From contig BTQE01000005.1 of the NCBI GenBank assembly GCA_036985715.1, forward strand, positions 1 through 55,521: a stretch of 55,521 nt of DNA, read 5' to 3'. Every line of letters starts with the position of its first letter. Within the stretch, counting starts at the first letter, position 1. Under the pieces are notes generated by a model. It was not told where the DNA came from, did no database searches, and was given only the letters and a program-made list of their open reading frames with translations. Shown here piece by piece: positions 1-30,451 of the stretch. The stretch comes from Rhodothermia bacterium (GTDB lineage: Bacteria; Bacteroidota; Rhodothermia; Rhodothermales; UBA10348). The position numbers were made by a program, and so were the translations under genes.

Positions 1-279
1 GATGCCTTCGAAAAGGTATGGGAGGAGATTGAAGGTTGGCTTGATGATACTCCGTATCTGGCAACAACGACTGTTCTTGAGCGCCTTCAGGCTGCATATC
101 CAGGGCGGTATCAAAACAACAAACTTCGCACACTTCAGCGCCGTGTAAAAGCCTGGAGGCTCAGCCAAATTGAGAAGCCCGAACACGAGTTCAGCACGGG
201 AGATTCTCTCCCTGATGCAGACACGATTGAACTCGTTGTACATTGTGAAAGCCGTACTGGAAATGAGAGCCTCTGGTAA
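1..279 (+). CDS. C-terminal part of a DDE transposase (ISNCY/IS21-like C-terminal HTH region); 5' part lies outside the window
   Basis: Frame 1 is open from base 1 to TAA at 277-279: DAFEKVWEEIEGWLDDTP...LERLQAAYPGRY...LRTLQRRVKAWR, a motif typical of these transposases. Absent from the ORF track because it has no start codon. Confidence 0.8.
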   Translation, partial: DAFEKVWEEIEGWLDDTPYLATTTVLERLQAAYPGRYQNNKLRTLQRRVKAWRLSQIEKPEHEFSTGDSLPDADTIELVVHCESRTGNESLW

Positions 280-298
280 CATTTTAAACGAGGCAATG
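1..298 (+). mobile_element. Right end of an IS inserted into IS3 orfB
   Basis: The transposase stop is followed by a terminal-IR-like ggtaacattttaaacgaggcaa (275-296). IS3 orfB similarity on the minus strand stops abruptly at about 299. Confidence 0.7.
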
Positions 299-455
299 CG
301 CGGTGCGGACGCTCGACGTAGAGCTCGTCGAGGGCCCGCATGACGGAGAGGTTCTCTTCGCTCTCGCCTTTCGGCCGGTAGTATGCCGTCGAGCGGTTCA
401 GCGCGAGCAGCCGGCACTGCTTCGTCACAGGCAATCTGTTTTTACGGTCGATCAT
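299..455 (-). pseudogene. IS3 orfB transposase N-terminus, interrupted
   Basis: MIDRKNRLPVTKQCRLLALNRSTAYYRP...ENLSVMRALDELYVERP is a typical IS3 OrfB start. Residues after ERPHR are read from the antisense strand of the invading IS. Confidence 0.85.
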
Positions 456-469
456 TTGGCGGCGCTCAT

Positions 470-757
470 CTAACTGACGCGACCGAGCGCCTTCGATAAA
501 AAATCCTTCTCCATCGCCAACTCACCGATCTTGGCGTGGAGCTCTTTGATCTGAGCTTCCTGATCTCTCGGACCGGAACCGCCCGTCTCGAAGACATCCT
601 CGGCACTCGACAGAAGCTGCTTCTTCCAGGCGCTGATTTGATTCGGATGTACTTCGAACTGCTTGGCTAGCTCAGCCAGCGTGCGATCTCCTTTGATCGC
701 TGCCCGGGCCACCTTTGCCCTGAATGCAGAGCTGTGATTGCGTCTCTTGCGACTCAT
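470..757 (-). CDS. IS3-family transposase OrfA (HTH)
   Basis: MSRKRRNHSSAFRAKVA...TLAELAKQFEVHPNQISAWKKQLL...LHAKIGELAMEKDFL; SD-like aggagg upstream. Confidence 0.92.
   Translation of the reverse strand: MSRKRRNHSSAFRAKVARAAIKGDRTLAELAKQFEVHPNQISAWKKQLLSSAEDVFETGGSGPRDQEAQIKELHAKIGELAMEKDFLSKALGRVS
497..503 (-). promoter_or_regulatory. -1 programmed ribosomal frameshift heptamer T-TTT-TTA
   Basis: AAG GAT TTT TTA near the end of orfA. The -1 frame reads IEGARSRQLDERRQ without a stop directly into orfB MIDRK. Confidence 0.75.
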
Positions 758-943
758 CGTAAACCTCCTTTTTTGGGTTTGATAAGATCGTAAGATTCCA
801 CCTTAATTACGGCTTAACCTGTCCGGCTAACCCAGGCCATCTCTTCCTTTTAATGGGATTACCTCAACAACTTTCATTTTTGCGGCGATTGAATTTTCGG
901 AATTGCTGATACCGGAATAGGGTGGTTTCGGTTTTCATCAGTC

Positions 944-1037
944 ATAGAACGGCTGACAAATCAAGAAAGAGGCGGGCCACTCGCACGCCATAGGATTCTA
1001 CGCCCGCTTGACTTTGGTGGCCATAAGCGTGTTATCC
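944..1037 (-). repeat. attC site (family A)
   Basis: Begins 8 nt after the toxin stop with R'' GGATAAC and ends at R' GTTCTAT. Imperfect hairpin (aaagtcaag/cttgattt, gcgggc/gcccgc). Near-copy of 4494-4589. Confidence 0.88.
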
Positions 1038-1045
1038 GCACGTCT

Positions 1046-1333
1046 TCACTTGGGCTCTCCTGTTAGTTGGGCTGAATGCCAGACCCCAACAATCATCACC
1101 ACATCATCCTCTAATCGATAGAAAAACCGATATGGAGAAACGACGACTTCTCGATAGGGTAGGTCTGGGAATTCAGGAAGCGGTCGCCCGGATTCTGGGA
1201 AGTCAATCAAGCGTCCAAGCGAATTTTCTGCTTTAAGGCGAAAGTTCTTAGCAGCTGATGGCTTGTCACTGGCAATGAATCGAAGCGCCTTCCGGAATTG
1301 AGATCTCGCAGTTCGCGTGAATCTTATTTCCAT
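1046..1333 (-). CDS. RelE/ParE-family toxin
   Basis: 95 aa, IRFTRTARSQF...L.DFPESGRPLPE...YREVVVSPYRFFYRL...IVGVWHS. Overlaps the antitoxin stop (TAATG). Confidence 0.9.
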   Translation of the reverse strand: MEIRFTRTARSQFRKALRFIASDKPSAAKNFRLKAENSLGRLIDFPESGRPLPEFPDLPYREVVVSPYRFFYRLEDDVVMIVGVWHSAQLTGEPK

Positions 1334-1608
1334 TACAGCTCAGAAAGGATTTGATCTGCTTCGACGAAGACTTCGTCCATCGAATACGTTTCCCCGGCTG
1401 CAATTTCCTGTTCCCCTCGCGCAAGGATTTTCAATATTTCGAGTTCGTGCTGCGATCTCTGATATGACTCGGCGCTAACCATTACGACGGCAGCTCTTCC
1501 ACGCTGGGTAATTACGACCGGATCAGGGGAGGACGAGATGTCCTTGACGATACTTGCTATTGCCTGGCGAAGCTCTGAAATAGGAATGATCTTAGGAACA
1601 GCCTTCAT
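1333..1608 (-). CDS. Phd/YefM-family antitoxin
   Basis: IIPISELRQ...PVVITQRGRAAVVMVSAESY, acidic C-terminus, directly upstream of the toxin. Confidence 0.92.
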   Translation of the reverse strand: MKAVPKIIPISELRQAIASIVKDISSSPDPVVITQRGRAAVVMVSAESYQRSQHELEILKILARGEQEIAAGETYSMDEVFVEADQILSEL

Positions 1609-1625
1609 GATTGCCCGCGGTAACT

Positions 1626-1655
1626 AGTACATAATATCGTACAATCAACTGTACG
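1626..1655. promoter_or_regulatory. Putative YefM-type TA autoregulatory operator: three GTAC cores 12 bp apart
   Basis: GTAC at 1627, 1639 and 1651 in the AT-rich leader of the Phd/YefM gene. E. coli YefM-YoeB binds TGTACA-core palindromes spaced 12 bp. Confidence 0.65.
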
Positions 1656-1678
1656 TGTTAAATATTGTTTCAAAGTGC

Positions 1679-1818
1679 GGATAACAGCTGGCGGATCTGC
1701 GGACAGGGTCCGATTGCGTCTTCATTCTACCCCAGAGAGGGCGTAAGGTCAAGAGGAGCAATAGAATGCCGAAGCGCAAAGCGGCCCCATCGGGCAGCAG
1801 GGCGGAGGCGAGTTAGAT
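1679..1818 (-). repeat. attC site (family B) of a mostly deleted cassette
   Basis: R'' ATCTAAC (1812-1818) and R' GTTATCC (1679-1685), with internal pairs cattcta/tagaatg and ttgcg/cgcaa. The R'-proximal 22 bp match attC 3658-3766 at 20/22. Confidence 0.75.
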
Positions 1819-1866
1819 TGCGATGAGCCAACGAAGCCCGAGCCTGCGTGGCCGACCCGCAGAACC

Positions 1867-2055
1867 ATGATACCGTCCGCCGGGAAAGTGGCGCTTCAAA
1901 TAACGAAGCAGGATAACCGGGTCAGGGTCCTGCCGGAAGGTCTTGTGTTCGAGATGTGCTGTGTAGATCGACACCGCGCGCGAAGAGAGGTGGACATCAA
2001 GTCCGACGTAAATATCTTGTCCAGAGAAGTCGAGCTCTGTAGCTTGAGTCTTCAT
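1867..2055 (-). pseudogene. Truncated IS110-family transposase (first 63 codons)
   Basis: MKTQATELDFSGQDIYVGLDVH...HKTFRQ...LRYLKRHFPGGRYH contains the first RuvC-like (DEDD) Asp motif (YVGLDVH). Similarity ends before the expected YEAG motif. Confidence 0.82.
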
Positions 2056-2144
2056 GGTAAGCCTCGTGATATGGCGGGAGTTGGGACTATTCAAACCCAA
2101 GCTACCCACTTTGTCCAAGGCTTACTGCTTTAACATACCGTCTT

Positions 2145-2157
2145 GTTATGAAGCCGT
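2145..2157 (-). repeat. R'' remnant of the attC of the HigBA cassette
   Basis: Minus-strand ACGGCTTCATAAC overlaps the higA stop and is the exact complement of the cassette start GTTATGAAGCCGT (3664-3652). The rest of the attC is replaced by IS110 sequence. Confidence 0.75.
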
Positions 2158-3243
2158 TTTTGGCGACCAACTATATTTGACCTTTAGGTCGTTGCATTGA
2201 TTAAATCTTAGGATTCTGTCGTGTTGAAGTCGGCCTACTACGATTCCGGGAGCTATGCCAAGTTGATCTGCCAATTCATTAATGTCAGCTTTGGCAAAAG
2301 ACTGATTTGCGACAAAGTTTCGATAATTGTCTGGTGGGATTAGAAAATTTGCAGCCCACCGGTTTGCCGCTTGCTCTTCTTCGCCTTCATTTTTCTCATT
2401 GTCTAAAAAAATAGCTCTTTTTCCATGCAAGAGAACGTGTGCCGCTTCGTGAAAGAAGGTGAACCACAGGTGATCATTGGTCTTATATCTCAGAGAAAGT
2501 TGTATGAGTGCATTACTTGGGCTAATCCATCTGGTGGCCCCACTGACGCAAGATTTTGGTAGTTGTGGAACAAACACCACGGCAACACCTGATTCGGCAC
2601 ACATCGTTTCGAGTTCCGCCAGAAAGACGTCAGGTTTACTTCGAGTTAATGACCGAACACTATTAAGCGCATCGACAAATTTAGACTTGCTAAAAGGAGC
2701 AAGCCTAATCTGATTTGCCCCGAGAATTCCGGCACGTAGCCACGCGCCCAACGAATAATCATTCACATCGAATGCGGAGGACCTCCGAAAAGCCACTTCG
2801 TATCGAGTATACAATTTTTCCCACTGCTCGGGCGACGAAACGCCAAGGTATTGAAGTAGATTTTTTACGTTTTCGGAAGGATCTTTCACCTTAGGGAGAA
2901 AACCCGAGGCGGCCATTTCCTTTAACGGAAACTTCGACGCCCAAGACCTTTCTTTTGCCAAAAGATTGTCCTGGTTTTGACGAGCTAAATATTCTCTAAA
3001 GTATTGTTCTCTGGTATTCCAGAATCGCGCAGGGATCCCTAAAACGAGTTCCAATTCCAACGCGGTTTCCTGAGTAATCGCTGCCTTCCCATTAATAATC
3101 TCATTTATCGTCTTTTTTGGCCTACCCATCCGAGTAGCCAACTCTGCCTGGCTCAGGTTTCGTTCATCGAGCAAATCCTTAAGCGTCGAACCCGGTGTCG
3201 ACACATAGTCAGGCTTGTATTGGTTTGTCACTGACTTAACCAT
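2146..3243 (-). CDS. higA: HigA-family antitoxin, Xre HTH fused to an ImmA/IrrE-type Zn metallopeptidase domain
   Basis: Likely start ATG 3243 (MVKSVTNQYKPDYVSTPG), overlapping the higB stop. HTH SQAELATRMGRPKKTINEIINGKAAIT; HExxH in FFHEAAHVLLH...EEQAANRWA. Confidence 0.88.
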   Translation of the reverse strand: MVKSVTNQYKPDYVSTPGSTLKDLLDERNLSQAELATRMGRPKKTINEIINGKAAITQETALELELVLGIPARFWNTREQYFREYLARQNQDNLLAKERSWASKFPLKEMAASGFLPKVKDPSENVKNLLQYLGVSSPEQWEKLYTRYEVAFRRSSAFDVNDYSLGAWLRAGILGANQIRLAPFSKSKFVDALNSVRSLTRSKPDVFLAELETMCAESGVAVVFVPQLPKSCVSGATRWISPSNALIQLSLRYKTNDHLWFTFFHEAAHVLLHGKRAIFLDNEKNEGEEEQAANRWAANFLIPPDNYRNFVANQSFAKADINELADQLGIAPGIVVGRLQHDRILRFNQCNDLKVKYSWSPKTAS

Positions 3244-3571
3244 GAGTGTCCTCGATTGAAATAATTTTGATTGCCTCGACATTCGACCAGTCGAGTCCTC
3301 CATCCATTTTAACCGGAGGCGGGTGCGGTACAGAAACGAACAGTAACCTATAGGGATGTTCTAAATCCAATGACAATGTCTTTGCCTTGTCTCCCTTTAG
3401 TTCATGACATCTGCCTGGAAGAAGTCTCATTTCTTCCAAATTTGAAACTGCCTGTAAGTTGTCTAGCCTACGGCGTAACGTTCTTGCATGATTTTGACCA
3501 AGTTTCTTGACTGCGTTTTTCGAGTCATTACACAGTTTTTCGAGCTTCCTAGAGTTGTATTCGATATCCAA
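3236..3571 (-). CDS. higB: HigB/RelE-family toxin (killer suppression protein type)
   Basis: MDIEYNSRKLEKLC...RRRLDNLQA...GRCHELKGD...SLDLEHPYRLLF...IEDTH; toxin-first gene order typical of higBA. Confidence 0.88.
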   Translation of the reverse strand: MDIEYNSRKLEKLCNDSKNAVKKLGQNHARTLRRRLDNLQAVSNLEEMRLLPGRCHELKGDKAKTLSLDLEHPYRLLFVSVPHPPPVKMDGGLDWSNVEAIKIISIEDTHG

Positions 3572-3586
3572 GACATCGGATGATAT

Positions 3587-3614
3587 GTTAATAAATTAAC
3601 CTGTGGGGTTAATT
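3587..3614. promoter_or_regulatory. Putative HigA operator palindromes
   Basis: AATTAACC-N5-GGTTAATT (3594-3614) with an overlapping GTTAAT-aa-ATTAAC (3587-3600), just upstream of higB in an AT-rich leader. Confidence 0.6.
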
Positions 3615-3657
3615 AAATAAAATATATACTAATTTCAACTTTGTTCCAAAGACGGCT

Positions 3658-3766
3658 TCATAACGGCTGGCGGATTTGCGGCGAGTAATTCGCTCACCGT
3701 CCTGAAAGTAACCGATTCCGACCGGCTCAGTTAGTCGGGCGAGCCCGCAACATGCGCAGGTTATCT
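3658..3766 (-). repeat. attC site (family B)
   Basis: R'' AGATAAC contains the upstream gene's TAA stop; R' is GTTATGA. Inner pairing ttgcgg/ccgcaa. Shares its R'-proximal arm with 1679-1818. Confidence 0.85.
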
Positions 3767-4396
3767 GGCCTTTCGACGGCTGCCTAATTGGTATGCGATT
3801 CCAAATCTCGACATCCATTGCGTACTCTTGTGGCCAGAATTCGTATCGCCCAAGCGCATCCCAATCTGTCCACCACCGACAAATCTTAGTGTCTGACTTA
3901 AATTGAGCTGTACCCTAACACCTGACGTTACGCTTCTAACTATATCGCTGTGATCCTTTCCGGGATTGCCAACAATTCCGAAGCCGCCCACGTACTTGGC
4001 ACGCAAAAACTGCTGCGAGAGTCCGAGATGGATACTAAAGTTGACTGGATTTGCCGTCAACTGTTGTCGTAACCGAAGGCCAAGCATTCCGGCTCGGTAA
4101 GCGTATGCCACACAGTCTGCGCCGCAGCTCACGAACTCGGTAACACCATCGCTCCAGTATGCCGCATAAAGTGCGGCCGAAAGGGTTTTCCCAGTGTTTG
4201 GGTGAAAGTAAATCGGCACGGAGAACTCGACTTCCGGATAAATTGCGCTCTCAGTTGAACCGCGCAACGGTTCGATCGCACCAAGCGACACGCTAATCAT
4301 CGGTGATGGTTGCTGAGCCCATCCGAGTGTTGATTCTTGGAGTCCGGATACAATAATCAGAGCCGTGACAAGCAGGGCCGTAGAATAATTTCGCAT
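3761..4396 (-). CDS. Cassette-borne secreted protein, putative small outer-membrane beta-barrel
   Basis: Likely start MRNYSTALLVTALII with a signal peptide (..GWA-Q). Amphipathic strands end in SRFGIAYQL. Stop lies inside the attC R''. Confidence 0.6.
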   Translation of the reverse strand: MRNYSTALLVTALIIVSGLQESTLGWAQQPSPMISVSLGAIEPLRGSTESAIYPEVEFSVPIYFHPNTGKTLSAALYAAYWSDGVTEFVSCGADCVAYAYRAGMLGLRLRQQLTANPVNFSIHLGLSQQFLRAKYVGGFGIVGNPGKDHSDIVRSVTSGVRVQLNLSQTLRFVGGGQIGMRLGDTNSGHKSTQWMSRFGIAYQLGSRRKAR

Positions 4397-4493
4397 GGCA
4401 AGGAAAGCACTGATTGAACAACTGCGATGCGGCGACAAGAATCGATAGGCATCTTTCGATATGGAGGTGAACAGAAAGGTACGAAAATGGTCC

Positions 4494-4589
4494 AGATAAC
4501 GGCCGACAAATCAAGTAAGAGGCGGGCTATAGACGCCCACCATGGGATTCTATGTCCGTTTGACTTTGGTGGCCATAAGCGTGTTCTAC
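4494..4589 (-). repeat. attC site (family A)
   Basis: R'' GTAGAAC starts 3 nt after the toxin stop; R' is GTTATCT. A 26-bp segment (ttgactttggtggccataagcgtgtt) is identical to 1008-1033. Confidence 0.88.
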
Positions 4590-4592
4590 GGC

Positions 4593-4895
4593 CTACCTCT
4601 CCTTAGATCCACCGAACAACTTTGCAGAATGTGTCAATGTTAATATTTCTACAGATTTAGCGACAGCATCGTAGAAATAGATTATCCTGTACCCTCGGTG
4701 AAGTAGCTCACGAATCTGCGGGTCGTTAATCTCAGGGACTATCCGACCAAGTTCTGGCATCTGAGCCAAAGAATGTACCCTTTCGAAAACCCCCGCCACA
4801 AATATTGACGCATAGCCTGGGGAAACCTCTAGATAATATCCCTCAATCGAATCTAAATCTCGCAATGCTTGCGGCAGCCACTTCAGTTCTGCCAC
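4593..4895 (-). CDS. RelE/ParE-family toxin
   Basis: LKWLPQALRDLDSI...L.QMPELGRIVPE...IRELLHRGYRIIY...ILTLTHS. Confidence 0.9.
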   Translation of the reverse strand: MAELKWLPQALRDLDSIEGYYLEVSPGYASIFVAGVFERVHSLAQMPELGRIVPEINDPQIRELLHRGYRIIYFYDAVAKSVEILTLTHSAKLFGGSKER

Positions 4896-4898
4896 GGA

Positions 4899-5102
4899 TC
4901 AATTCCACTTGCGATCTGCACGTGGCTTTCCAAACTCTCGCATAGCCTCTTCTTGGGAAATACCCTGACCTTTCTGGTCTAGACCGGTACGAACCTTACT
5001 CAAAAGAACAATGCGCTCAATAAAATCGTCGAGATTCATATCATCAGCGGACATCTCACGCATTACTTTCTGAATGTCAGATTTAGAAATAGTGCTTGGC
5101 AT
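4899..5102 (-). CDS. Small putative antitoxin (67 aa)
   Basis: Likely start MPSTISKSDIQKVMREM...LDDFIERIVLLSKVRTGL...GISQEEA, ending 3 nt before the toxin. The longer ORF call would cross the cassette boundary at 5190. Confidence 0.75.
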   Translation of the reverse strand: MPSTISKSDIQKVMREMSADDMNLDDFIERIVLLSKVRTGLDQKGQGISQEEAMREFGKPRADRKWN

Positions 5103-5183
5103 GGACCTACTCAGTATTGGAGACTTCGCTTCGTAATGATACTCAACCGGATACTTTGGGTTCGGCAAGACCGATATTTGGCC

Positions 5184-5250
5184 GTAGAACCGGTATTCTA
5201 CGAAACGGCCTCCCTCAATTATACATAGTGGGTAGAATCCCAAGTTGGAA
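5184..5250 (-). repeat. attC-like (or attI-like) site at the start of the TA cassette
   Basis: R' GTTCTAC(GGCC) is complementary to that cassette's R'' over 11 bp. Minus strand reads TTCCAAC-ttggg-ATTCTAC...GTAGAAT-accg-GTT, a paired L''/L' arrangement with atypical spacing. Confidence 0.6.
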
Positions 5251-5432
5251 CAAGTCTAACGTGCACAACTACTTGAATCAATAATTGGAGGTGACAATTC
5301 GGCTCCAGCCTGGGTACTACCAATCGGCATCTCACCGGTCTGTATATCACGCATGACAACATTTGCGTGGTCGGCTTATCAGGCGGGCCGCATTTCACAA
5401 TTCTAATGAAATCAGATCCAATGACCTGATGC

Positions 5433-5520
5433 TCAGAACAAATCCCTTACGCGGTGGAAGTCAAGTCCTTTCTGTTATCCATGCCTTGCCCCACGCTCAC
5501 GCATCATAGATCTGTTCTAC
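5433..5520 (-). repeat. Possible degenerate attC site
   Basis: Ends GTAGAACagatc ... gatttGTTCTGA pair; inner gtggggcaag/cttgacttccac pair. No clear ORF attached. Confidence 0.45.
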
Positions 5521-5653
5521 TGACTTCGCATCGCCGGGTAGGAGATCCGAGTCCCGACCTCATTATCAGGTTTAAACGGGCCTTTTCTTCTCGGAATTAT
5601 GCAAATCGCTTGACTTCTGCCTAATGATATGGCCTGGTTAGACGGCAACCACG

Positions 5654-6346
5654 CTATAGACGGTCTGCGACAACGACCTCTGATGGAATCGCGAATGGGG
5701 CCACGTGGGCGTGATAACGAAGCCTCCACTCGGAGGAGGAGAGAACGCCTGCGAGCTCGATCGGGCGGCAGCCACCCACAAGCGAGGGACCTAGCTTGTG
5801 TACTGCTGTCCAGAGCCGGGCGACCATGCGAGACGCGAATCCCGACCCTGTGGAAAGACTGGAGAGACATAGAAGACCTCCTGGTTCCAGCATGCGGTGG
5901 GCCTCGCGAAGAACAAGGGCAATGTCCTGATCGGACAGCAGATCCAATACGTAAGTGGAAACGAAGCGATCGTAAAATTCGGATGGCTCCTGCGCCGGAG
6001 GACTTCCGTCGCTCAGGCTGACCTTCGCCCGGGAGCTGAATACGGCAAGCCGATCTTCGGCGAGCCTGACCATCGTCGGGCTAAGATCGACGGCCCGGTA
6101 GACGGCGTCGGAGGGAAGGTGCTCAGACAGAAGGCGGAGCCCAAACCGCCCGGTGCCGCATCCGAACTCGAACATGTTCCGAGCAGAAGCGAATTGCCCA
6201 TTTTGGATGATGAGGTCCAACGCACGATTTTCGTAGAACGACTGGGAGTCCAGGAGTGTGCCGAGGCGGTTGTACACGCGTCGGGCTTTTTCTCGGGAGA
6301 GGGTCTTCACGGCAGACTCATTTTCGAAGGTACGTTCGCTCCGCAT
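5654..6346 (-). CDS. Class I SAM-dependent methyltransferase (possibly cassette-borne)
   Basis: Motif I FEFGCGTG, AVDLSPTM, LREAHRMLEPGG. Start uncertain (ATG 6346 or GTG 6310). GTCTAAC lies 10 nt after the stop. Confidence 0.85.
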   Translation of the reverse strand: MRSERTFENESAVKTLSREKARRVYNRLGTLLDSQSFYENRALDLIIQNGQFASARNMFEFGCGTGRFGLRLLSEHLPSDAVYRAVDLSPTMVRLAEDRLAVFSSRAKVSLSDGSPPAQEPSEFYDRFVSTYVLDLLSDQDIALVLREAHRMLEPGGLLCLSSLSTGSGFASRMVARLWTAVHKLGPSLVGGCRPIELAGVLSSSEWRLRYHAHVAPFAIPSEVVVADRL

Positions 6347-6599
6347 CCGAACTTGCAAACTCAGGCGCAAAAGGTTGAGCGGATACTATTCGTTTCAAGC
6401 AATGTAGACGTAGCGCTCAAAACCGGCAAGACTCGCACGTTCGTTGTCGGACGACGAACTCCGGCACGCAGCGATCGGTGTGGATACGGCTAATCCTGAT
6501 TCCCCTCGACCAAAGGAAGCAATTATTGGAGGTTAGATCGAGGGAAAGTGGACGAAGTAATACTTTAAAGAATTGGTGAAACGCGCCGAATAATGCAAC

Positions 6600-6617
6600 T
6601 GACCGACAGGTCGGTCG
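6600..6617. promoter_or_regulatory. TetR operator 1
   Basis: TGACCGAC-AG-GTCGGTCG palindrome upstream of the TetR gene; matches operator 2. Confidence 0.85.
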
Positions 6618-6644
6618 GTACATCATGCATCTACCCACAAAGTC

Positions 6645-7271
6645 ATGACAACGACCAGAGCAACGTCATCCGGTTCCTCCGCATTCGATCCGGATCTAAA
6701 GAAGGCCCAGATCGCGGAAGCCGCCATCAGGGTGTTCGCAGAGAGTGGCTTGGCGAAGGCCAAAATGATCGAAATAGCCCGTGAGGCAAATGTCGGCAAG
6801 GGAACCATATACGAGTACTTCCGGAGCAAGGATGAGCTGGTTAAATATGCAGTCACTCTGTTTCTTCAAACCCTTAATCAGCAGTTGGATAGCGAATTGG
6901 AGAGGGAAGACGATCCGATGAAGAAACTTGAAGTGATTATCCACACGACACTGGAATCGTTCTGGAAAGTGGGTCACGAAGGGCGCTTCATGATTGACAT
7001 CTGGGCGGATGGTGTTCGCTCAGGAGTAGACTATTTCGATACGCCGGCGATGTATGCCCAGTACCGCGCTCTAATTGGTGCAGTTCTGGACGAAGGAACA
7101 AGGAGGGGAATGTTCCGGAAAACAGATTCACTCATCACCGCTTCTCTCATTATCAGCCTTCTCGACGGAATGATTCTGCAATGGGCGCTGGACCCCGAAG
7201 CGTTGGTGTATAGTGATGCGGAGAAAGGCTTGTTGGAACTCTTAGAACTCGGATTGGCTCCAAATGATTGA
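6645..7271 (+). CDS. TetR/AcrR-family transcriptional regulator
   Basis: IAEAAIRVFAESG...MIEIAREANVGKGTIYEYFRSKDEL HTH. Confidence 0.95.
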   Translation: MTTTRATSSGSSAFDPDLKKAQIAEAAIRVFAESGLAKAKMIEIAREANVGKGTIYEYFRSKDELVKYAVTLFLQTLNQQLDSELEREDDPMKKLEVIIHTTLESFWKVGHEGRFMIDIWADGVRSGVDYFDTPAMYAQYRALIGAVLDEGTRRGMFRKTDSLITASLIISLLDGMILQWALDPEALVYSDAEKGLLELLELGLAPND

Positions 7272-7307
7272 ATCCTGAGCTATGAAAGCTTATTTCATCA
7301 ACCGCTA

Positions 7308-7325
7308 TGACCGACCGGTCGGTCA
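7308..7325. promoter_or_regulatory. TetR operator 2
   Basis: Perfect 18-bp palindrome TGACCGACCGGTCGGTCA, 21 bp upstream of the MMPL start. Confidence 0.88.
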
Positions 7326-7346
7326 CTTAAAAAAACGTACGACACT

Positions 7347-10300
7347 GTGAGAGATCGATTTTTTACAACCCTGGCATCCTGGGCAGAGCACCACACCTGG
7401 CTGATGCTCGGACTGACGCTACTGGTCACCGTGCTGACCGCCGCAATCGCCGGCGGACTTGAGCTAAACATGCAGTTCAAGAGCTTGATGCCCCAGTCGC
7501 ATCCCACAGTTCAGGAGTACGACTTCATCGTAAATAACTACAGTTCAGCAACAAACATCATCGTTGCCGTCAAAGGTGACGAAAATTCGATCAAGTCCTT
7601 TGCCGACGATCTGGTCCCCAAACTCCGGGCGATGACCGAATACGTGAGCCGCGTCGACTACAAGATCAATCGCGAGTTCATGGGCCGGCACGGTTTCATG
7701 CTTTCGAAAGCCCGTGATCTGGATAACAGCAGAAACCTGTTCAGCGATTTGCGTCTGGTACCGTTTCTGACGCGCCTCAACGACAGCTTCGAGCAAACCT
7801 ACATCGCCGACGATGAGGGAATTTCGAACGGTGAAAAAGAGGATAAGGCCGTTCGAGCTCTCGATGGGATCGAAAACTGGCTTCAGACCATGACGCTCTA
7901 TCTGGATGGTGACGGAGACGTCGAAGCCGCTCGCGAAGCCGTCGATCGCATGCTGATCGGTGATCCGTACTTCATTTCGCAGGACAAGGACATTCTGCTT
8001 CTTTTTGCTCAGCCCACGTTCACGCTGAATGAAGTGGATAAATTGATGATGGCTATGAATGCCATCGATTCACAGATCGAAGAACTGGTTTCAAAATATC
8101 CGAATATTGATGCCGGTACGACGGGTCTGATGGCCCTCTCGCGAGACGAATTTAATGCCCTCTCGTCCGACTTGTACGTGACGACGCTCATCGCCTTCAT
8201 ACTCATAATCGGATTGTTCATTGTCAGTTTTCGGATGTGGGCAGCGCCGCTGCTGGCCGGGATCAGTCTTATCGTGGGCCTAATCTGGGCATCCGGTTTC
8301 ATAGCGGTCACAGTGGGCAGCCTTAACATGATGACGTCGATGTTCGCCGTGATTCTCGTCGGTCTTGGCATCGATTACAACATCCACGTGATATCCGGTT
8401 ACACAGAGTTTCGAGCTGAAGGCCACTCGATCTACGACGCCCTCAGAATGGCCCTTGTCAAGACGGGGAATGGAATCGTGATCGGTGCTGTCAGTACCGC
8501 TCTTGCCTTTCTGACCATGCTTATCTCGGAAAACCAGGGTATGAAGGAATTCGCGGTCGTAGTGGGTGGCGGAGTACTCTTCACCATGATCGCGTCTCTG
8601 TTGGTTCTTCCGCCGCTGCTCGTTGCAAGGGACCGTATCAGGGTACGTAGGAAGGGTGAGCCGCGGAGCCTGCGATCGATCTCATACGGACGGGTCGGAA
8701 ACCTGGCCGAGTGGCTTGCTGCCAGGCCCATTCAGGTGCTCGCTACGCTGTTCGTCGTGACAGTGCTCATGGCCTATAGTGCGTTTACTATTTCCTTCGA
8801 TTACAATTACCTGAATCTGGAGCCCGTTGGACTTAAATCCATCGAGTTGCAGGATGAGATCATTGATGAGTTTGATATCACTCCTGATATCCTTCTGGTT
8901 ACGGCTGCGTCCGTGGAGGAGGCACGGTCTATCTCCGACCAGGCTAAAGAACTCAAGTCGGTAGGACTGGTCATGAGCATCTCAGACTACGTTCCTTCCT
9001 CCGAGCAACATGAGAGACGCCTGCCCTATATCCGAAAGATTCGTTCCGATCTCGCGAACGGCACTACTCTCCCTGCCATGACCGAGGACGATGTTGATTT
9101 GCTTCTCAACGAGTTGTATCGCATGGAGGACAACGTCATCGAGCTCGCCCAACTCGCCTTTGCGGGCGGACAGGACAAGGTCGATCGTAAAGCCGAGCGG
9201 ATTGTAGGAGATCTCGAGCAAACCGCCGCCGAGCGATCAGGTCTCTTTCGCCCTCTCGTGGAGCGGCTGGATTCCGATCGGTCCTCAGGTGCAGCCCGTC
9301 TGGCTGCTTTCGAACGAGACTACGAGCCGTTTCTTCGGACGGCAGCTCTTGGGATGACATCTGAAGAGATCATTACGTTACCCGATCTCCCTGCCAGCAT
9401 TCGTAATCAGTTTGTGAGTAACGACGGACGGCAATTTCTTCTGTCGATTTACCCGAGACAACAAGTCTGGGATTTAGAATTTCTCGGGCGGTTGACCAAG
9501 CAAATGCACCGGATTGATCCGCGTGTGACGGGTATGCCACCCATCTTCTTCGTGCTTGTCGAGTATATCGCCAAGGATGGACGCCGTGCCGCTCTCCTTA
9601 CTATGGTTCTCGTTTTTCTGCTACTGTGGATTGATTTTCGAAGCATCAACTCTGCTGTCGCAGCAATGCTGTCGTTGGCCGTCGGAGCCATCTGGATGGT
9701 CGGACTCATGAATGTATTCGGAATGAAATTCAACCTTCTCAACGTAATCGGAATTCCTCTCATTCTGGGGATAGGAATCGACGACGCCGTACATATTCTA
9801 AATCGTTATCGGGTGGAAGGACGAGGTCGTATCAATGTCGTGTACGCAAGCACTGGAAAGGCAATCATATTGACCTCGATCACGACAATGCTTGCGTTCG
9901 GATCCCTGACTTTCGCAACCTATCGCGGGCTGGGCAGTCTCGGCCTGACACTGGCGATCGGCGTAGGTACGGCTCTCTTGACCTCGCTTCTTATGCTTCC
10001 GGCACTGCTTGGTCTGTTGGAGAAGTACACCAGGTATGGAATACAATCGACGGATCGACCGAGAAAAAAGGGTGCAGCGATCATCGCGATAGTTTTCTTG
10101 TTTCCGATTTTGATGTGGTCGAACACAGTACGTGCGCAGGTGCCTACCGTCGACGTGCTCGATATTATCAGACGAGTCGACGCCAACGAACGAACCGAGT
10201 CCAGTCGAATTATCGGTAAACAGATTATTACTACGTCTTCCGGGCGTAAGAGAACTCTGGAGATAGAATCATATGCTAAGGGGGGCAATGAGAAATCTCT

Positions 10301-10832
10301 GATAGTATACACGGGACCTGCCCGTGTTCGGGGTGATAAAATTTTGATGCTGAATGACGGGGACGATATCTGGTTTTATACGCCAAAAACAGACCGCGTT
10401 CGACATCTGGCCTCGCACGCGAGACGGCAGAAAGTGCAAGGAAGCGATTTCTCCTATGAGGATTTGAGTACGGGAAAATTCGAGGAAGACTATACTCACA
10501 CGCTCCTGGGACAGGTTGAAATGGATGGAGTCGACTACTACAAAATTGAAGCAATTCCAGATGAGTCCGGTCCCTCGTATTCTAAAATAATCGTGTGGGT
10601 GGAGACCACTCGATACGTTGTACGCAGAATCGATTACTACGACGACGGGGCGCTTCTCAAACGCCTGACGAACAGCGATATTCGAGAATTGGAAGGGCAT
10701 ATTCTGCCTTTCAAAATGCTCATGGAAAACCTTCGGGACGGATCACGTACGGAATTCGAATTTAGCGAGATGACCCTGAATATCGAGTTGGAGGACCAGC
10801 TTTTTACGACCGAAAACCTGAAAAGGCGGTAG
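7347..10832 (+). CDS. MMPL/RND-family transporter fused to a C-terminal LolA-like (outer-membrane lipoprotein-sorting) domain
   Basis: Two RND repeats with GLGIDYNIH and GIGIDDAVH motifs. After about aa 930 comes a LolA-like domain (SLIVYTGPARVRG...WFYTPKTDRVR...GSDFSYEDL...LFTTENLKR). Confidence 0.9.
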   Translation: MRDRFFTTLASWAEHHTWLMLGLTLLVTVLTAAIAGGLELNMQFKSLMPQSHPTVQEYDFIVNNYSSATNIIVAVKGDENSIKSFADDLVPKLRAMTEYVSRVDYKINREFMGRHGFMLSKARDLDNSRNLFSDLRLVPFLTRLNDSFEQTYIADDEGISNGEKEDKAVRALDGIENWLQTMTLYLDGDGDVEAAREAVDRMLIGDPYFISQDKDILLLFAQPTFTLNEVDKLMMAMNAIDSQIEELVSKYPNIDAGTTGLMALSRDEFNALSSDLYVTTLIAFILIIGLFIVSFRMWAAPLLAGISLIVGLIWASGFIAVTVGSLNMMTSMFAVILVGLGIDYNIHVISGYTEFRAEGHSIYDALRMALVKTGNGIVIGAVSTALAFLTMLISENQGMKEFAVVVGGGVLFTMIASLLVLPPLLVARDRIRVRRKGEPRSLRSISYGRVGNLAEWLAARPIQVLATLFVVTVLMAYSAFTISFDYNYLNLEPVGLKSIELQDEIIDEFDITPDILLVTAASVEEARSISDQAKELKSVGLVMSISDYVPSSEQHERRLPYIRKIRSDLANGTTLPAMTEDDVDLLLNELYRMEDNVIELAQLAFAGGQDKVDRKAERIVGDLEQTAAERSGLFRPLVERLDSDRSSGAARLAAFERDYEPFLRTAALGMTSEEIITLPDLPASIRNQFVSNDGRQFLLSIYPRQQVWDLEFLGRLTKQMHRIDPRVTGMPPIFFVLVEYIAKDGRRAALLTMVLVFLLLWIDFRSINSAVAAMLSLAVGAIWMVGLMNVFGMKFNLLNVIGIPLILGIGIDDAVHILNRYRVEGRGRINVVYASTGKAIILTSITTMLAFGSLTFATYRGLGSLGLTLAIGVGTALLTSLLMLPALLGLLEKYTRYGIQSTDRPRKKGAAIIAIVFLFPILMWSNTVRAQVPTVDVLDIIRRVDANERTESSRIIGKQIITTSSGRKRTLEIESYAKGGNEKSLIVYTGPARVRGDKILMLNDGDDIWFYTPKTDRVRHLASHARRQKVQGSDFSYEDLSTGKFEEDYTHTLLGQVEMDGVDYYKIEAIPDESGPSYSKIIVWVETTRYVVRRIDYYDDGALLKRLTNSDIRELEGHILPFKMLMENLRDGSRTEFEFSEMTLNIELEDQLFTTENLKRR

Positions 10833-29665: not shown

Positions 29666-30451
29666 ATGGAGCCTAACGAGAAGTTGAATCGAGATCAGTC
29701 CGAGCCAGAAGCGGGTTCAAACGAGGAGTCAGAATCATCCGCTGCGGATGTGTCGAAGGATTCGACTGCTTTTTCGGCGGCATCCGACTCACTGGAATCG
29801 TCCGTTTCCACGAAGAAGCAGAAAAAGAAAAAAGACGGTCTCGGCACATCTCGGGGAATCGAAACCATATTCAGGACTTCTTATAGAGTCCACATGAATC
29901 TGAGTTCGCTAGCAGATGCCAAGGCAAATATCATGATCAGTATCAATGGGCTCATCATTTCTATCATAATCGCTGCGATTTCTCCAAAGATCGATACGAA
30001 CCCCTGGTTGCTTCTTCCCACGACCATTATGCTTTTGGGTTCACTGATTTCGATCGTCTACGCGGTTCGTGCGGCCAGGCCAAGAGTAAGCAGCCAAATA
30101 GTGTCACTCGACGATGCGGGAAGTAAGCGAACGAACATTCTCTTTTTCGGACACTTCACGAATATGACTGAAGATGAGTTCGTTTTAGGTATGTCCAATC
30201 TGCTCTCAGATCAGACCTCGCTTTATCAGAATATGATCAGGGACATATATGGTCTAGGTCAGGTTCTGAAACGAAAATTTTCGTTACTAAGAATTTCCTA
30301 TACCGTATTCATGGTAGGCCTGATCCTTGGCATTCTGGCGTTCATATCAACGTATACATGGATCGTTATTAGTCTCGGTCCGGAAGAGTTATCGTCGATT
30401 TTACCATCCGAAGGCCCAACACTTCTCGCTAGCATGGGATTCGCAATATGA
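29666..30451 (+). CDS. Pycsar-effector-like (DUF5706/PycTM) membrane protein without an HD domain
   Basis: RGIETIFRTSYRVH..LSSLADAKANIMISIN, two TMs, ARPR, NILFFGHF, LGQVLKRKFSLLRISY, then a third TM. Confidence 0.82.
   Translation: MEPNEKLNRDQSEPEAGSNEESESSAADVSKDSTAFSAASDSLESSVSTKKQKKKKDGLGTSRGIETIFRTSYRVHMNLSSLADAKANIMISINGLIISIIIAAISPKIDTNPWLLLPTTIMLLGSLISIVYAVRAARPRVSSQIVSLDDAGSKRTNILFFGHFTNMTEDEFVLGMSNLLSDQTSLYQNMIRDIYGLGQVLKRKFSLLRISYTVFMVGLILGILAFISTYTWIVISLGPEELSSILPSEGPTLLASMGFAI

Follow-up and report, generated by a model that had tools for sequence, protein, structure and literature searches.

A probable integron-type cassette array without an integrase of its own in a Rhodothermales-related bacterium

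Do the co-oriented genes and intervening repeats at positions 944-5250 of a 55.5 kb stretch of DNA (contig BTQE01000005.1 of a Rhodothermia bacterium; the whole stretch is referred to here as the window) represent an array of integron cassettes, although no integrase gene accompanies them? Clusters of at least two attC sites without an integron integrase are termed CALIN (clusters of attC sites lacking integrases); the account in PMC9024848 counts 2961 of them in RefSeq against 2760 complete integrons and regards them as degraded integrons. A CALIN-like array is what the original prediction had proposed for this region, and the proposal holds, on condition that the sites are attC: a 4.7-kb stretch contains three intact and one degenerate site as well as two half-sites, and the window has no integrase. 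We consider it likely that positions 877-5190, probably continuing to 6370, form a chromosomal integron-type cassette array without its own integrase, that is, a CALIN. The array is an element of an ordinary kind with some unusual local features. Its cassette genes lie on the minus strand and its sites are read on the plus strand, as follows.

Further cassette, 877..950, minus strand: putative first ~70 nucleotides (nt), beginning with GTTCTATGAC on the minus strand, directly beyond the AAC that closes site A, as read from the sequence.
Site A, 948..1033, plus strand: attC-like, 86 nt, running from AAC to GTT; the plus strand is its presumed bottom strand.
Cassette 4, 1031..1685, minus strand: Phd/YefM antitoxin (1333-1608) and ParE toxin (1046-1333).
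Half-site B, 1683..1704, plus strand: the 5' (R'-L') arm only of a C-type site.
Half-site X, 2125..2147, plus strand: only the 3' arm and GTT of the site of cassette 3; it resembles C-type 3' arms by eye only.
Cassette 3, 2145..3664, minus strand: HigB-like toxin (3236-3571) and HTH-XRE/M78 peptidase, a HigA-like antitoxin (2146-3303, likely start 3243).
Site C, 3662..3762, plus strand: attC-like, 101 nt, with homologous sites in three of the related loci described below (L001, L004 and L005).
Cassette 2, 3760..4500, minus strand: predicted secreted small beta-barrel protein of 211 amino acids (aa) (3761-4396), near-ORFan.
Site D, 4498..4585, plus strand: attC-like, 88 nt, of the same type as site A (A type).
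Cassette 1, 4583..5190, minus strand: 67-aa putative antitoxin (4899-5102) and ParE toxin (4593-4895).

The start of each of the four complete cassettes is complementary to its own R'' over 9-13 nt. The sequence GTTATCCGCAC at 1031 is complementary to GTGCGGATAAC ending at 1685 (11 nt), the complement of GTTATGAAGCCGT at 2145 ends at 3664 (13 nt, or 19 nt at 95% in a longer alignment), GTTATCTGG at 3760 is complementary to CCAGATAAC ending at 4500 (9 nt), and GTTCTACGGCC at 4583 is complementary to GGCCGTAGAAC ending at 5190 (11 nt). These are the four GTT-led pairs that had been predicted, all of them at the predicted places, with the 1031/1685 pair measuring 11 nt instead of 10. The partner sequence differs from unit to unit while AAC and GTT are constant. 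The units also behave as integron cassettes in other respects, as had been suggested: each has its own pair from GTT to AAC, the sites lie 3' of co-oriented genes (from 1046 to 5243, every long open reading frame, ORF, is on the minus strand), and the stop codons of the cassette genes fall inside or just past GTTA. Such a footprint would be expected if each cassette had formerly been a circle. In the circular form of an attC cassette, R' and R'' pair (PMC5027507). An IntI-type tyrosine recombinase would have cut the site hairpin in the conserved AAC before joining it with a resident site; the opening bases of each linear cassette would hence be complementary to the far arm of that cassette's site.

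Could these pairs instead be the product of chance or ordinary palindromes, the repeated elements being terminators or hairpins resembling repetitive extragenic palindromes between toxin-antitoxin operons, with no mobile cassettes at all? We generated 1000 dinucleotide-preserving shuffles of 944-5250 and counted GTT-led inverted pairs of at least 9 nt with a spacing of 300-1700 nt. The shuffles contain a mean of 0.33 and a maximum of three such pairs, and none of them reaches four. In the real window, 10 such pairs (partly redundant) lie in the ~50 kb outside this region, and just one of them is at least 11 nt long. A lone 9-nt pair is unremarkable, because about 0.3 are expected in a region of this size and others exist elsewhere in the window; this speaks for chance, as do the mostly unremarkable fold z-scores given below. 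The signal is the set of four pairs that tile the region, the GTT arm of each one marking the 3' edge of a repeated element. Sites A and D share 83-89% identity, confined to the stretch from AAC to GTT.

Further evidence comes from other genomes. A scan of genome contigs with 20 nt of the A/D 3' arm, among whose matches the window's own genome does not appear, returned seven loci (L001-L007) on seven contigs, from three metagenome-assembled genomes (MAGs; assemblies JADFHF01, JABMOI01 and CALFHN01) labelled Bacteroidetes bacterium or bacterium. L001 lies on JADFHF010000002.1, L006 on JADFHF010000017.1 and L007 on CALFHN010000155.1, and one MAG has sites on three contigs; each locus was viewed to 2 kb on either side of the site. 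The 26-mer TTGACWTTGGTGGCCATAAGCGTGTT is present in every locus, and the sequence past GTT is different each time. In six of the seven loci, the end of an annotatable gene, oriented as the window genes are, lies just past GTT (HigBA, DUF4411 with HTH-M78, protein kinase, creatininase or esterase), and in L003 the first such ORF encodes a zinc-ribbon protein and ends ~100 nt away. C-type sites recur beside unrelated genes in L001, L004 and L005, and more weakly in L002.

The footprint recurs at these loci as well. For 12 site ends from the seven loci and three MAGs, we compared the 12-mer starting at GTT with the reverse complement of its would-be partner, with 200 shuffled-arm controls. Seven site ends have a partner matching at 10 or more of 12 positions, three of them at all 12 (L002, L005 and L007), and in these seven the partner ends exactly at the start of the next site or of a conserved element, E, described below. 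The observed score is reached by none of the 200 controls for four of the 12. Within the window, four of five site ends pass the same test, and the fifth (5637) scores 8/12, which is the chance level; the pair of cassette 4 scores 11/12, equalled by none of 200 controls, and the GTT of half-site X at 2145 pairs at 12/12 with 3653-3664. The recurrence in this test therefore assigns the footprint to a site family present in at least four genomes. Within this family the 26-mer is invariant in nine sites while its pairing partner varies.

Partners that are specific to the unit, with AAC and GTT fixed, and that end exactly at site boundaries in four genomes are difficult to reconcile with chance palindromes between operons, as are the same site types flanking unrelated genes across genomes and the four pairs that none of the shuffles attains; we consider an origin without mobile cassettes scarcely credible. 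The units could also be small transposons or elements similar to miniature inverted-repeat transposable elements, since an inverted repeat bounds each unit and insertion sequence (IS) remnants are present. The terminal repeats of one transposon family are alike between copies, whereas here 9-14 nt are specific to each unit and GTT/AAC alone is common to them. Moreover, no transposase accompanies the units, and the conserved parts lie between the units and not at their ends, making a transposon origin very improbable.

The ends of the sites are those of integron sites, with variants at the AAC end. An AAC start and a GTT end are found in window sites A, C and D and in four sites from the related loci (L001s2, L005C, L006t and L005E3). 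The variants are AAT (L003h and L004C), AAG (four L002-type sites) and ATC (the degenerate window site E3, described with the right flank). Site lengths are 86 nt for A, 88 for D, 101 for C, 100 for both L001s2 and L004C, 107 for L005C, 113 for L006t and 136-137 for the E3 type, all inside the 57-141 bp given for attC in PMC5027507. According to the same source, the AAC triplet alone is conserved among all attC sites.

Some further features of the site ends were seen along the way. Short units of the form AAC-N8-10-GTT occur at site edges (window 2133-2147, L005 1039-1052 and window 5504-5516, the third with ATC replacing AAC) and might represent either simple core sites of the double-stranded kind or sites that have collapsed. 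The four A-type sites with AAG for AAC come from two MAGs (L002 1-48, L004 1883-1930, L005 1883-1930 and L007 on the reverse strand) and have in common a conserved leftward extension of at least 47 nt. In L005 this extension is bounded by GTTCATG and CATGAAG and looks like a tiny non-coding cassette whose junction was frozen by the change from AAC to AAG. L005 also contains ~160 nt (1724-1882) that are absent from the equivalent place in L004 and have the 7-nt GCTGCTG on both sides, which may be a small insertion with a target duplication; in L004, a 15-nt unit (GGCTCACGTGTCGAT) is repeated three times in tandem at 1820-1865, just left of the conserved extension. The rightmost site of L001 (3433-3547) combines a normal C-type 5' arm with ATC in the place of the closing GTT; the ORFs after it are on the opposite strand, and there is no E element there.

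Do these sites fold as attC sites do? According to PMC5027507, the bottom strand of an attC site forms an imperfect hairpin of R box, L box, stem and a variable terminal structure. The consensus fold of five C-type sites has a stem of 15 pairs, with 93.3% of the cells paired and compensatory (two-sided) changes at five of the 15 pairs. Its covariation is 0.393 against 0.197 in shuffles, none of 500 reaching 0.393, and is at most 0.113 when the partners are slid. The C-type hairpin is under structural selection. Its sole true bulge is on the 3' arm of the plus strand, and several of its pairs are G-T on that strand. With DNA parameters the plus strand is the more stable in seven of ten sites. 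Site A is predicted to fold into a stem that has a single bulged C in its 3' arm, one A/G mismatch and a one-sided bulge of 8 nt, at -12.6 kcal/mol on the plus strand against -9.8 on the minus strand (z=-0.59), and site D reaches -16.6 against -11.3 (z=-3.07), with none of 200 shuffles as good. The rule described in PMC5027507 is that the strand opposite the cassette genes (the bottom strand) folds and is cut in AAC, and the folding strand and gene orientation found here fit that rule.

Several observations weigh against reading this locus as an array of attC sites. With RNA parameters the plus strand is more stable in just six of the ten sites, and the fold z-score falls below -2 in one of the ten (site D), so that thermodynamic support is weak. 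In the consensus fold of six A-type sites, support from covariation is absent; this fold missed the stem of A and D, since the four copies of the L002 type diverge in the 5' arm and carry AAG for AAC. No hairpin is predicted for the E3-type sites. The canonical attC register described in PMC5027507 has an extrahelical G16 and T23/24, six base pairs apart (a rule established for IntI1), and an unpaired spacer of 5-6 nt in each arm. The bulged base here is a C, not a G and T six pairs apart; purine-purine mismatches lie 2 bp (C type) or 4 bp (A/D) from the bulged C, the two placing at positions ~13/16 or 21/26 from the site end. On the R' side, a 5-nt GGCYG follows AAC in A, C and D (half-site B reads AGCTG), and it is able to pair with the R'' side, where the spacer ranges from ~2 nt in site C to 8-14 nt in A/D and L005C. 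Sites A and D as folded have no spacer after AAC and the 8-nt one-sided bulge before GTT. The R'' boxes of the window, GTTATCC, GTTATGA, GTTATCT and GTTCTAC, each agree with GTTRRRY, the R'' part of the extended consensus RYYYAAC/GTTRRRY, at two of its four variable positions. Five of the 12 site ends at the related loci have no partner: L003 and L004_A score 9/12, the partner of the latter ending in AAT, the partner of L005_C ends in AAG, L004_C has only 258 nt of sequence to its right, and L005_A has an IS110 element downstream. Finally, none of the 34 ORFs within 2 kb of the related sites at the seven loci encodes an integrase.

Membership among attC sites is accordingly not fully established: the AAC/GTT ends, own-arm complementarity, hairpin, orientation and length agree with attC, and the extrahelical register does not. 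The expectation of bottom-strand attC hairpins was borne out for the C type by covariation, and for A and D by free energy only, but not for the E3 type, which has no hairpin, nor with respect to the canonical register.

What do the cassettes carry? Type II toxin-antitoxin modules of the ParE/Phd and HigB/HigA-like kinds are recognised as adjacent small genes matching families in Pfam and NCBIfam. Cassette 4 matches PhdYeFM_antitox (E=4e-17) and ParE_toxin (E=6.4e-17). Cassette 3 matches HigB-like_toxin, HTH_3 and Peptidase_M78 in Pfam and antidote_HigA in NCBIfam (E=7.7e-13). Cassette 1 has a ParE_toxin match (E=2.7e-13, Pfam), and its 67-aa ORF has no significant family in Pfam or NCBIfam, its position suggesting a putative antitoxin. 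The 211-aa protein of cassette 2 has no Pfam or NCBIfam match and one homologue, at 31% identity, in a word-indexed search of 5.8 billion proteins; the neighbours of its predicted structure in the Atlas are OmpA_membrane/OMP_b-brl barrels (TM 0.65-0.74). The cargo is of an ordinary kind, made up of toxin-antitoxin pairs, one small barrel protein of the outer membrane and, with the flanking gene discussed below, a methyltransferase. No resistance genes were seen among it. Three toxin-antitoxin cassettes and an ORFan are contents typical of chromosomal arrays. Cargo at the related loci likewise includes HigBA, RelB and DUF4411 with HTH-M78. We suggest that the three toxin-antitoxin cassettes would help the array to persist.

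Two side observations concern expression of this cargo. On the minus strand, sites A and D (995-1023 and 4547-4575) contain an identical promoter-like pair, TGGCCA-17-TAGAAT, with 9/12 matches, aimed at the next cassette downstream, whose expression these sites might drive. Two different MAGs share a near-identical palindrome just upstream of HigB (L001 2640-2665 and L005 2640-2665), probably the HigA operator.

Where, on this reading, is the site that received the cassettes? An attI site is double-stranded, lies next to the first cassette and is recognised by its own integrase. All the cassette genes being on the minus strand, the integrase and its attI had been expected to the right of the array, and the features found there are the following.

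E element, 5191..5484, no strand assigned: ~300 nt of conserved non-coding sequence abutting the AAC of the first cassette (cassette 1); a candidate attI-like platform.
E3 site, 5504..5639, plus strand: degenerate attC-like site with ATC replacing AAC; its end reads GTTAGACGG and is 15 nt away from the stop codon of the methyltransferase gene.
S-adenosylmethionine-dependent methyltransferase, 5654..6370, minus strand: Pfam Methyltransf_25/12/11.

The E element is 64-70% identical to L001 1417-1577 and L006 1969-2132, with a further stretch to L001 1814 at 80%, and a divergent copy is found in L007. In L006, L007 and the window it starts straight after the AAC with which the first cassette ends, the onset of conservation lying within 0-4 nt of the crossover AAC in all three, and in L001 it abuts the start of a gene for a pyrroloquinoline quinone-dependent dehydrogenase. 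Two core-like motifs occur in it: ATTCTAC lies four bases from the crossover, and GTCTAAC is ~70 nt away; RTTCTAC occurs eight times in 900-5700 against ~1.5 times per 4.8 kb elsewhere in the window. Its position and conservation make an attI-like landing platform our best reading of E.

Other identities for E were considered. A coding function is ruled out, as all six frames are stopped in at least two of the three copies and three-base periodicity is lacking. The possibility that E is itself a cassette with its own short site at 5188-5245 was rejected, since the GTT arm has no partner and the hairpin is kept in neither L001 nor L006. A possible second copy at 6366-6650, in the gap between the methyltransferase and TetR genes, was also dismissed (score 40; shuffles averaged 31 and reached 55). 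E may, as a possibility that we rate somewhat below even, be some other conserved non-coding unit, for instance a regulatory region, the gene of a small RNA or what is left of a different mobile element with a preference for these sites, and the array would then be without a recognisable attI. In the window and in L001, more co-oriented cassette-like units lie to the right of E, where the integrase is expected (beyond E in L001 there is another array), the E element of L001 contains terminator-like hairpins at 1627-1644, scored on both strands, and E in L007 is ~420 nt from a tRNA-Arg gene. Each of these fits such an identity, but the onset of conservation so close to the crossover AAC and the core-like motifs inside E do not; there is no covarying fold (positive covariation terms) on either strand of the three copies, and E has no similarity to the flanks of the IS110 element of L005. 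Rfam gave no match to the whole window at the gathering threshold, and searches of 700-5700, L001, L004 and L005 at E<=1 gave only two sub-threshold chance matches. We continue to treat E as a candidate platform.

As an observation in its own right, the tRNA-Arg (ACG) gene at L007 122-196, ~420 nt past the E-like element, has its 3' end towards the array, so the L007 array and platform may sit at a tRNA-associated integration spot. A tRNA scan of the window returned none.

Beyond E, the E3 site is 64% identical to L005 1037-1176, and the L005 copy has a perfect 12/12 own pair around a RelB cassette; the GTT arm of the window copy has no partner, its 8/12 being matched by 179 of 200 controls. 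The methyltransferase gene has a GC content of 0.60 against 0.44-0.52 in the array. It is possibly a fixed former cassette, a status suggested by the adjoining E3 site. The original prediction had placed a TetR operon to the right of the array in place of an integrase; no intI lies there, but TetR does not abut the array, the E element (5191-5484), E3 site (5504-5639) and methyltransferase coming first. The operon itself (6645-10832) consists of a TetR regulator followed by a protein of 1161 aa in which an MMPL/RND-type transporter is fused to a LolA-like domain at the C-terminus.

How intact is the array? It is partly dead and decayed, with an IS110 fragment between two half-sites (1683-2147) and an IS3-type element truncating its distal end.

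IS110-family transposase N-terminal fragment, 1864..2055, minus strand: residues 1-64 of ~360, within ORF 1813-2055.
IS3-family remnant, 1..876, minus strand: ORF 470-757 matches HTH_Tnp_1 (E=4e-10); it interrupts the further cassette that starts at 950.

The interval 1685-2145 had been taken as one site. The pairing of the GTT at 2145 with 3664 is real, but the interval contains two unmatched half-sites around the IS110-family fragment. The 22 nt of half-site B share 91% identity with both L001 3435-3457 and the 5' arm of site C, and neither inspection by eye nor repeat comparison found a matching 3' arm for it. The fragment is 95% identical to P0001, a 363-aa protein with PF01548 and PF02371, and all 14 of its 14 matches are full-length and have both domains, one bearing the name IS110 family transposase. 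A tblastn search of the window with the transposase recovers residues 1-64 only, the remainder of the gene being absent. The fragment itself has no Pfam match, neither DEDD_Tnp_IS110 nor Transposase_20 being found in what is a gene fragment, and ORF 1813-2055 has no BLASTP match to the L005 IS110 transposase. We ruled out that B and X are one site split by the IS110 element, as by eye their arms are not complementary, and because of this an insertion followed by a deletion is proposed: an IS110-family element would have landed in a site and later been mostly deleted along with adjoining DNA. Members of the related IS1111 family are described as targeting attC sites (PMC11187229). At the distal end, ORF 135-455 resembles the start of IS3 OrfB by eye only and has no Pfam match, and a ...CA terminus suggests that the right end of the IS3 remnant may lie near 876.

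Which host carries the array, and which enzyme moved its cassettes? PolA of the window shares 87% identity with a partial protein labelled Bacteroidetes bacterium, and 62-64% with Rhodocaloribacter and Rhodothermales proteins. A non-proteobacterial host had been foreseen, and PolA is indeed closest to Bacteroidota/Rhodothermales. The lack of an integrase extends to the full 55.5 kb, where none of the 52 large ORFs has a tyrosine recombinase domain, again as anticipated, and the 10 stop-to-stop frames within 5222-6018 contain no integrase remnants (Pfam and NCBIfam, E<=1). The arrangement of a complete integron, with intI beside attI and an array, is not found in the window. A search of a plasmid collection with 900-5700 in distant mode returned only one irrelevant 71-nt match, to a peptidase gene. 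Elsewhere in the window, as a separate observation, 29666-30451 encodes a 261-aa protein of the Pycsar effector family PycTM (E=3.4e-29), followed by a histidine phosphatase-like gene, with no adjacent cyclase in the Pfam scan.

We infer that the recombining enzyme was an IntI, now either lost or encoded elsewhere in the genome and acting in trans. The cassettes could alternatively be real and moved by a recombinase other than IntI, in a system of this lineage's own with E as the landing pad, its own site geometry and one distant gene serving several arrays. The departure of the sites from the canonical attC register would agree with this, as would the 26-mer that stays invariant in nine sites despite its varying pairing partner, and the MAG with sites on three contigs. 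E, too, heads or abuts arrays at four loci, and no integrase lies beside it where at least 400 nt are visible (window, L001 and L007). The crossover triplet, however, is the AAC/GTT of integrons, and the own-arm complementarity, the 3'-arm bulge opposite the genes and the cassette contents are all integron-like. A separate invention is also less economical than a divergent IntI, and arrays without an integrase are common (the 2961 CALIN against 2760 complete integrons of PMC9024848). We consequently judge a non-IntI recombinase quite improbable. A broader proposal, that Rhodothermales-related Bacteroidota carry several integrase-less arrays per genome, headed by E and with a non-canonical register, which are served by one distant divergent integrase in trans or by a non-IntI recombinase, seems unlikely to us, if less so.

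The preferred reading, an integron-type array without its own integrase, has consequences beyond this contig. Integrons have been studied almost wholly in Proteobacteria. The window and the seven related loci supply a cassette-site family from uncultured Rhodothermales-like bacteria together with a candidate attI, and the same loci are direct evidence of cassette exchange at AAC/GTT. The site family also provides a handle with which to seek the matching integrase in those genomes. Two questions are raised: whether attC models trained mainly on proteobacterial sites miss this register, and whether a platform can work without an adjacent integrase.

How, then, does the locus compare with known systems? 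Like a CALIN, it has at least two attC-type sites in one orientation, cassettes that look promoterless and no integrase nearby. Unlike CALIN defined by IntegronFinder, its sites were recognised by footprint and covariation and not by the IntegronFinder model, and it keeps a conserved candidate attI-like element that recurs without an integrase in other genomes.

Toxin-antitoxin cassettes are frequent in sedentary chromosomal integron arrays. Such arrays, of which the Vibrio cholerae superintegron is an example, likewise have similar sites within an array and lineage and long branched terminal structures, as described in PMC5027507. Unlike that superintegron, the window has no adjacent intI, ~5-6 cassettes, at least three interleaved site types and a register that is not G16/T23-24.

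With regard to lineage, PMC9024848 assigns 93% of complete integrons to Gammaproteobacteria and reports complete integrons among members of the Bacteroidetes/Chlorobi group, from Chlorobi, Ignavibacteriae and Salinibacter ruber M1, the last being the one it names in Bacteroidetes proper. These belong to the same broad lineage as the present host and are compared with it here at the level of lineage. Similar to the IS1111-family elements ISKpn4 and ISPst6, which target attC (PMC11187229), a DEDD-type IS110-family gene lies inside a cassette site of the window, and a second such element lies beside the L005 array. Unlike ISKpn4 and ISPst6, the window element retains 64 codons only, from which the IS110/IS1111 subgroup and the exact point of insertion are unreadable, and its targeting of the site is suggested by its position. 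Taken as a whole, the locus works like a sedentary integron array and falls within the operational definition of CALIN.

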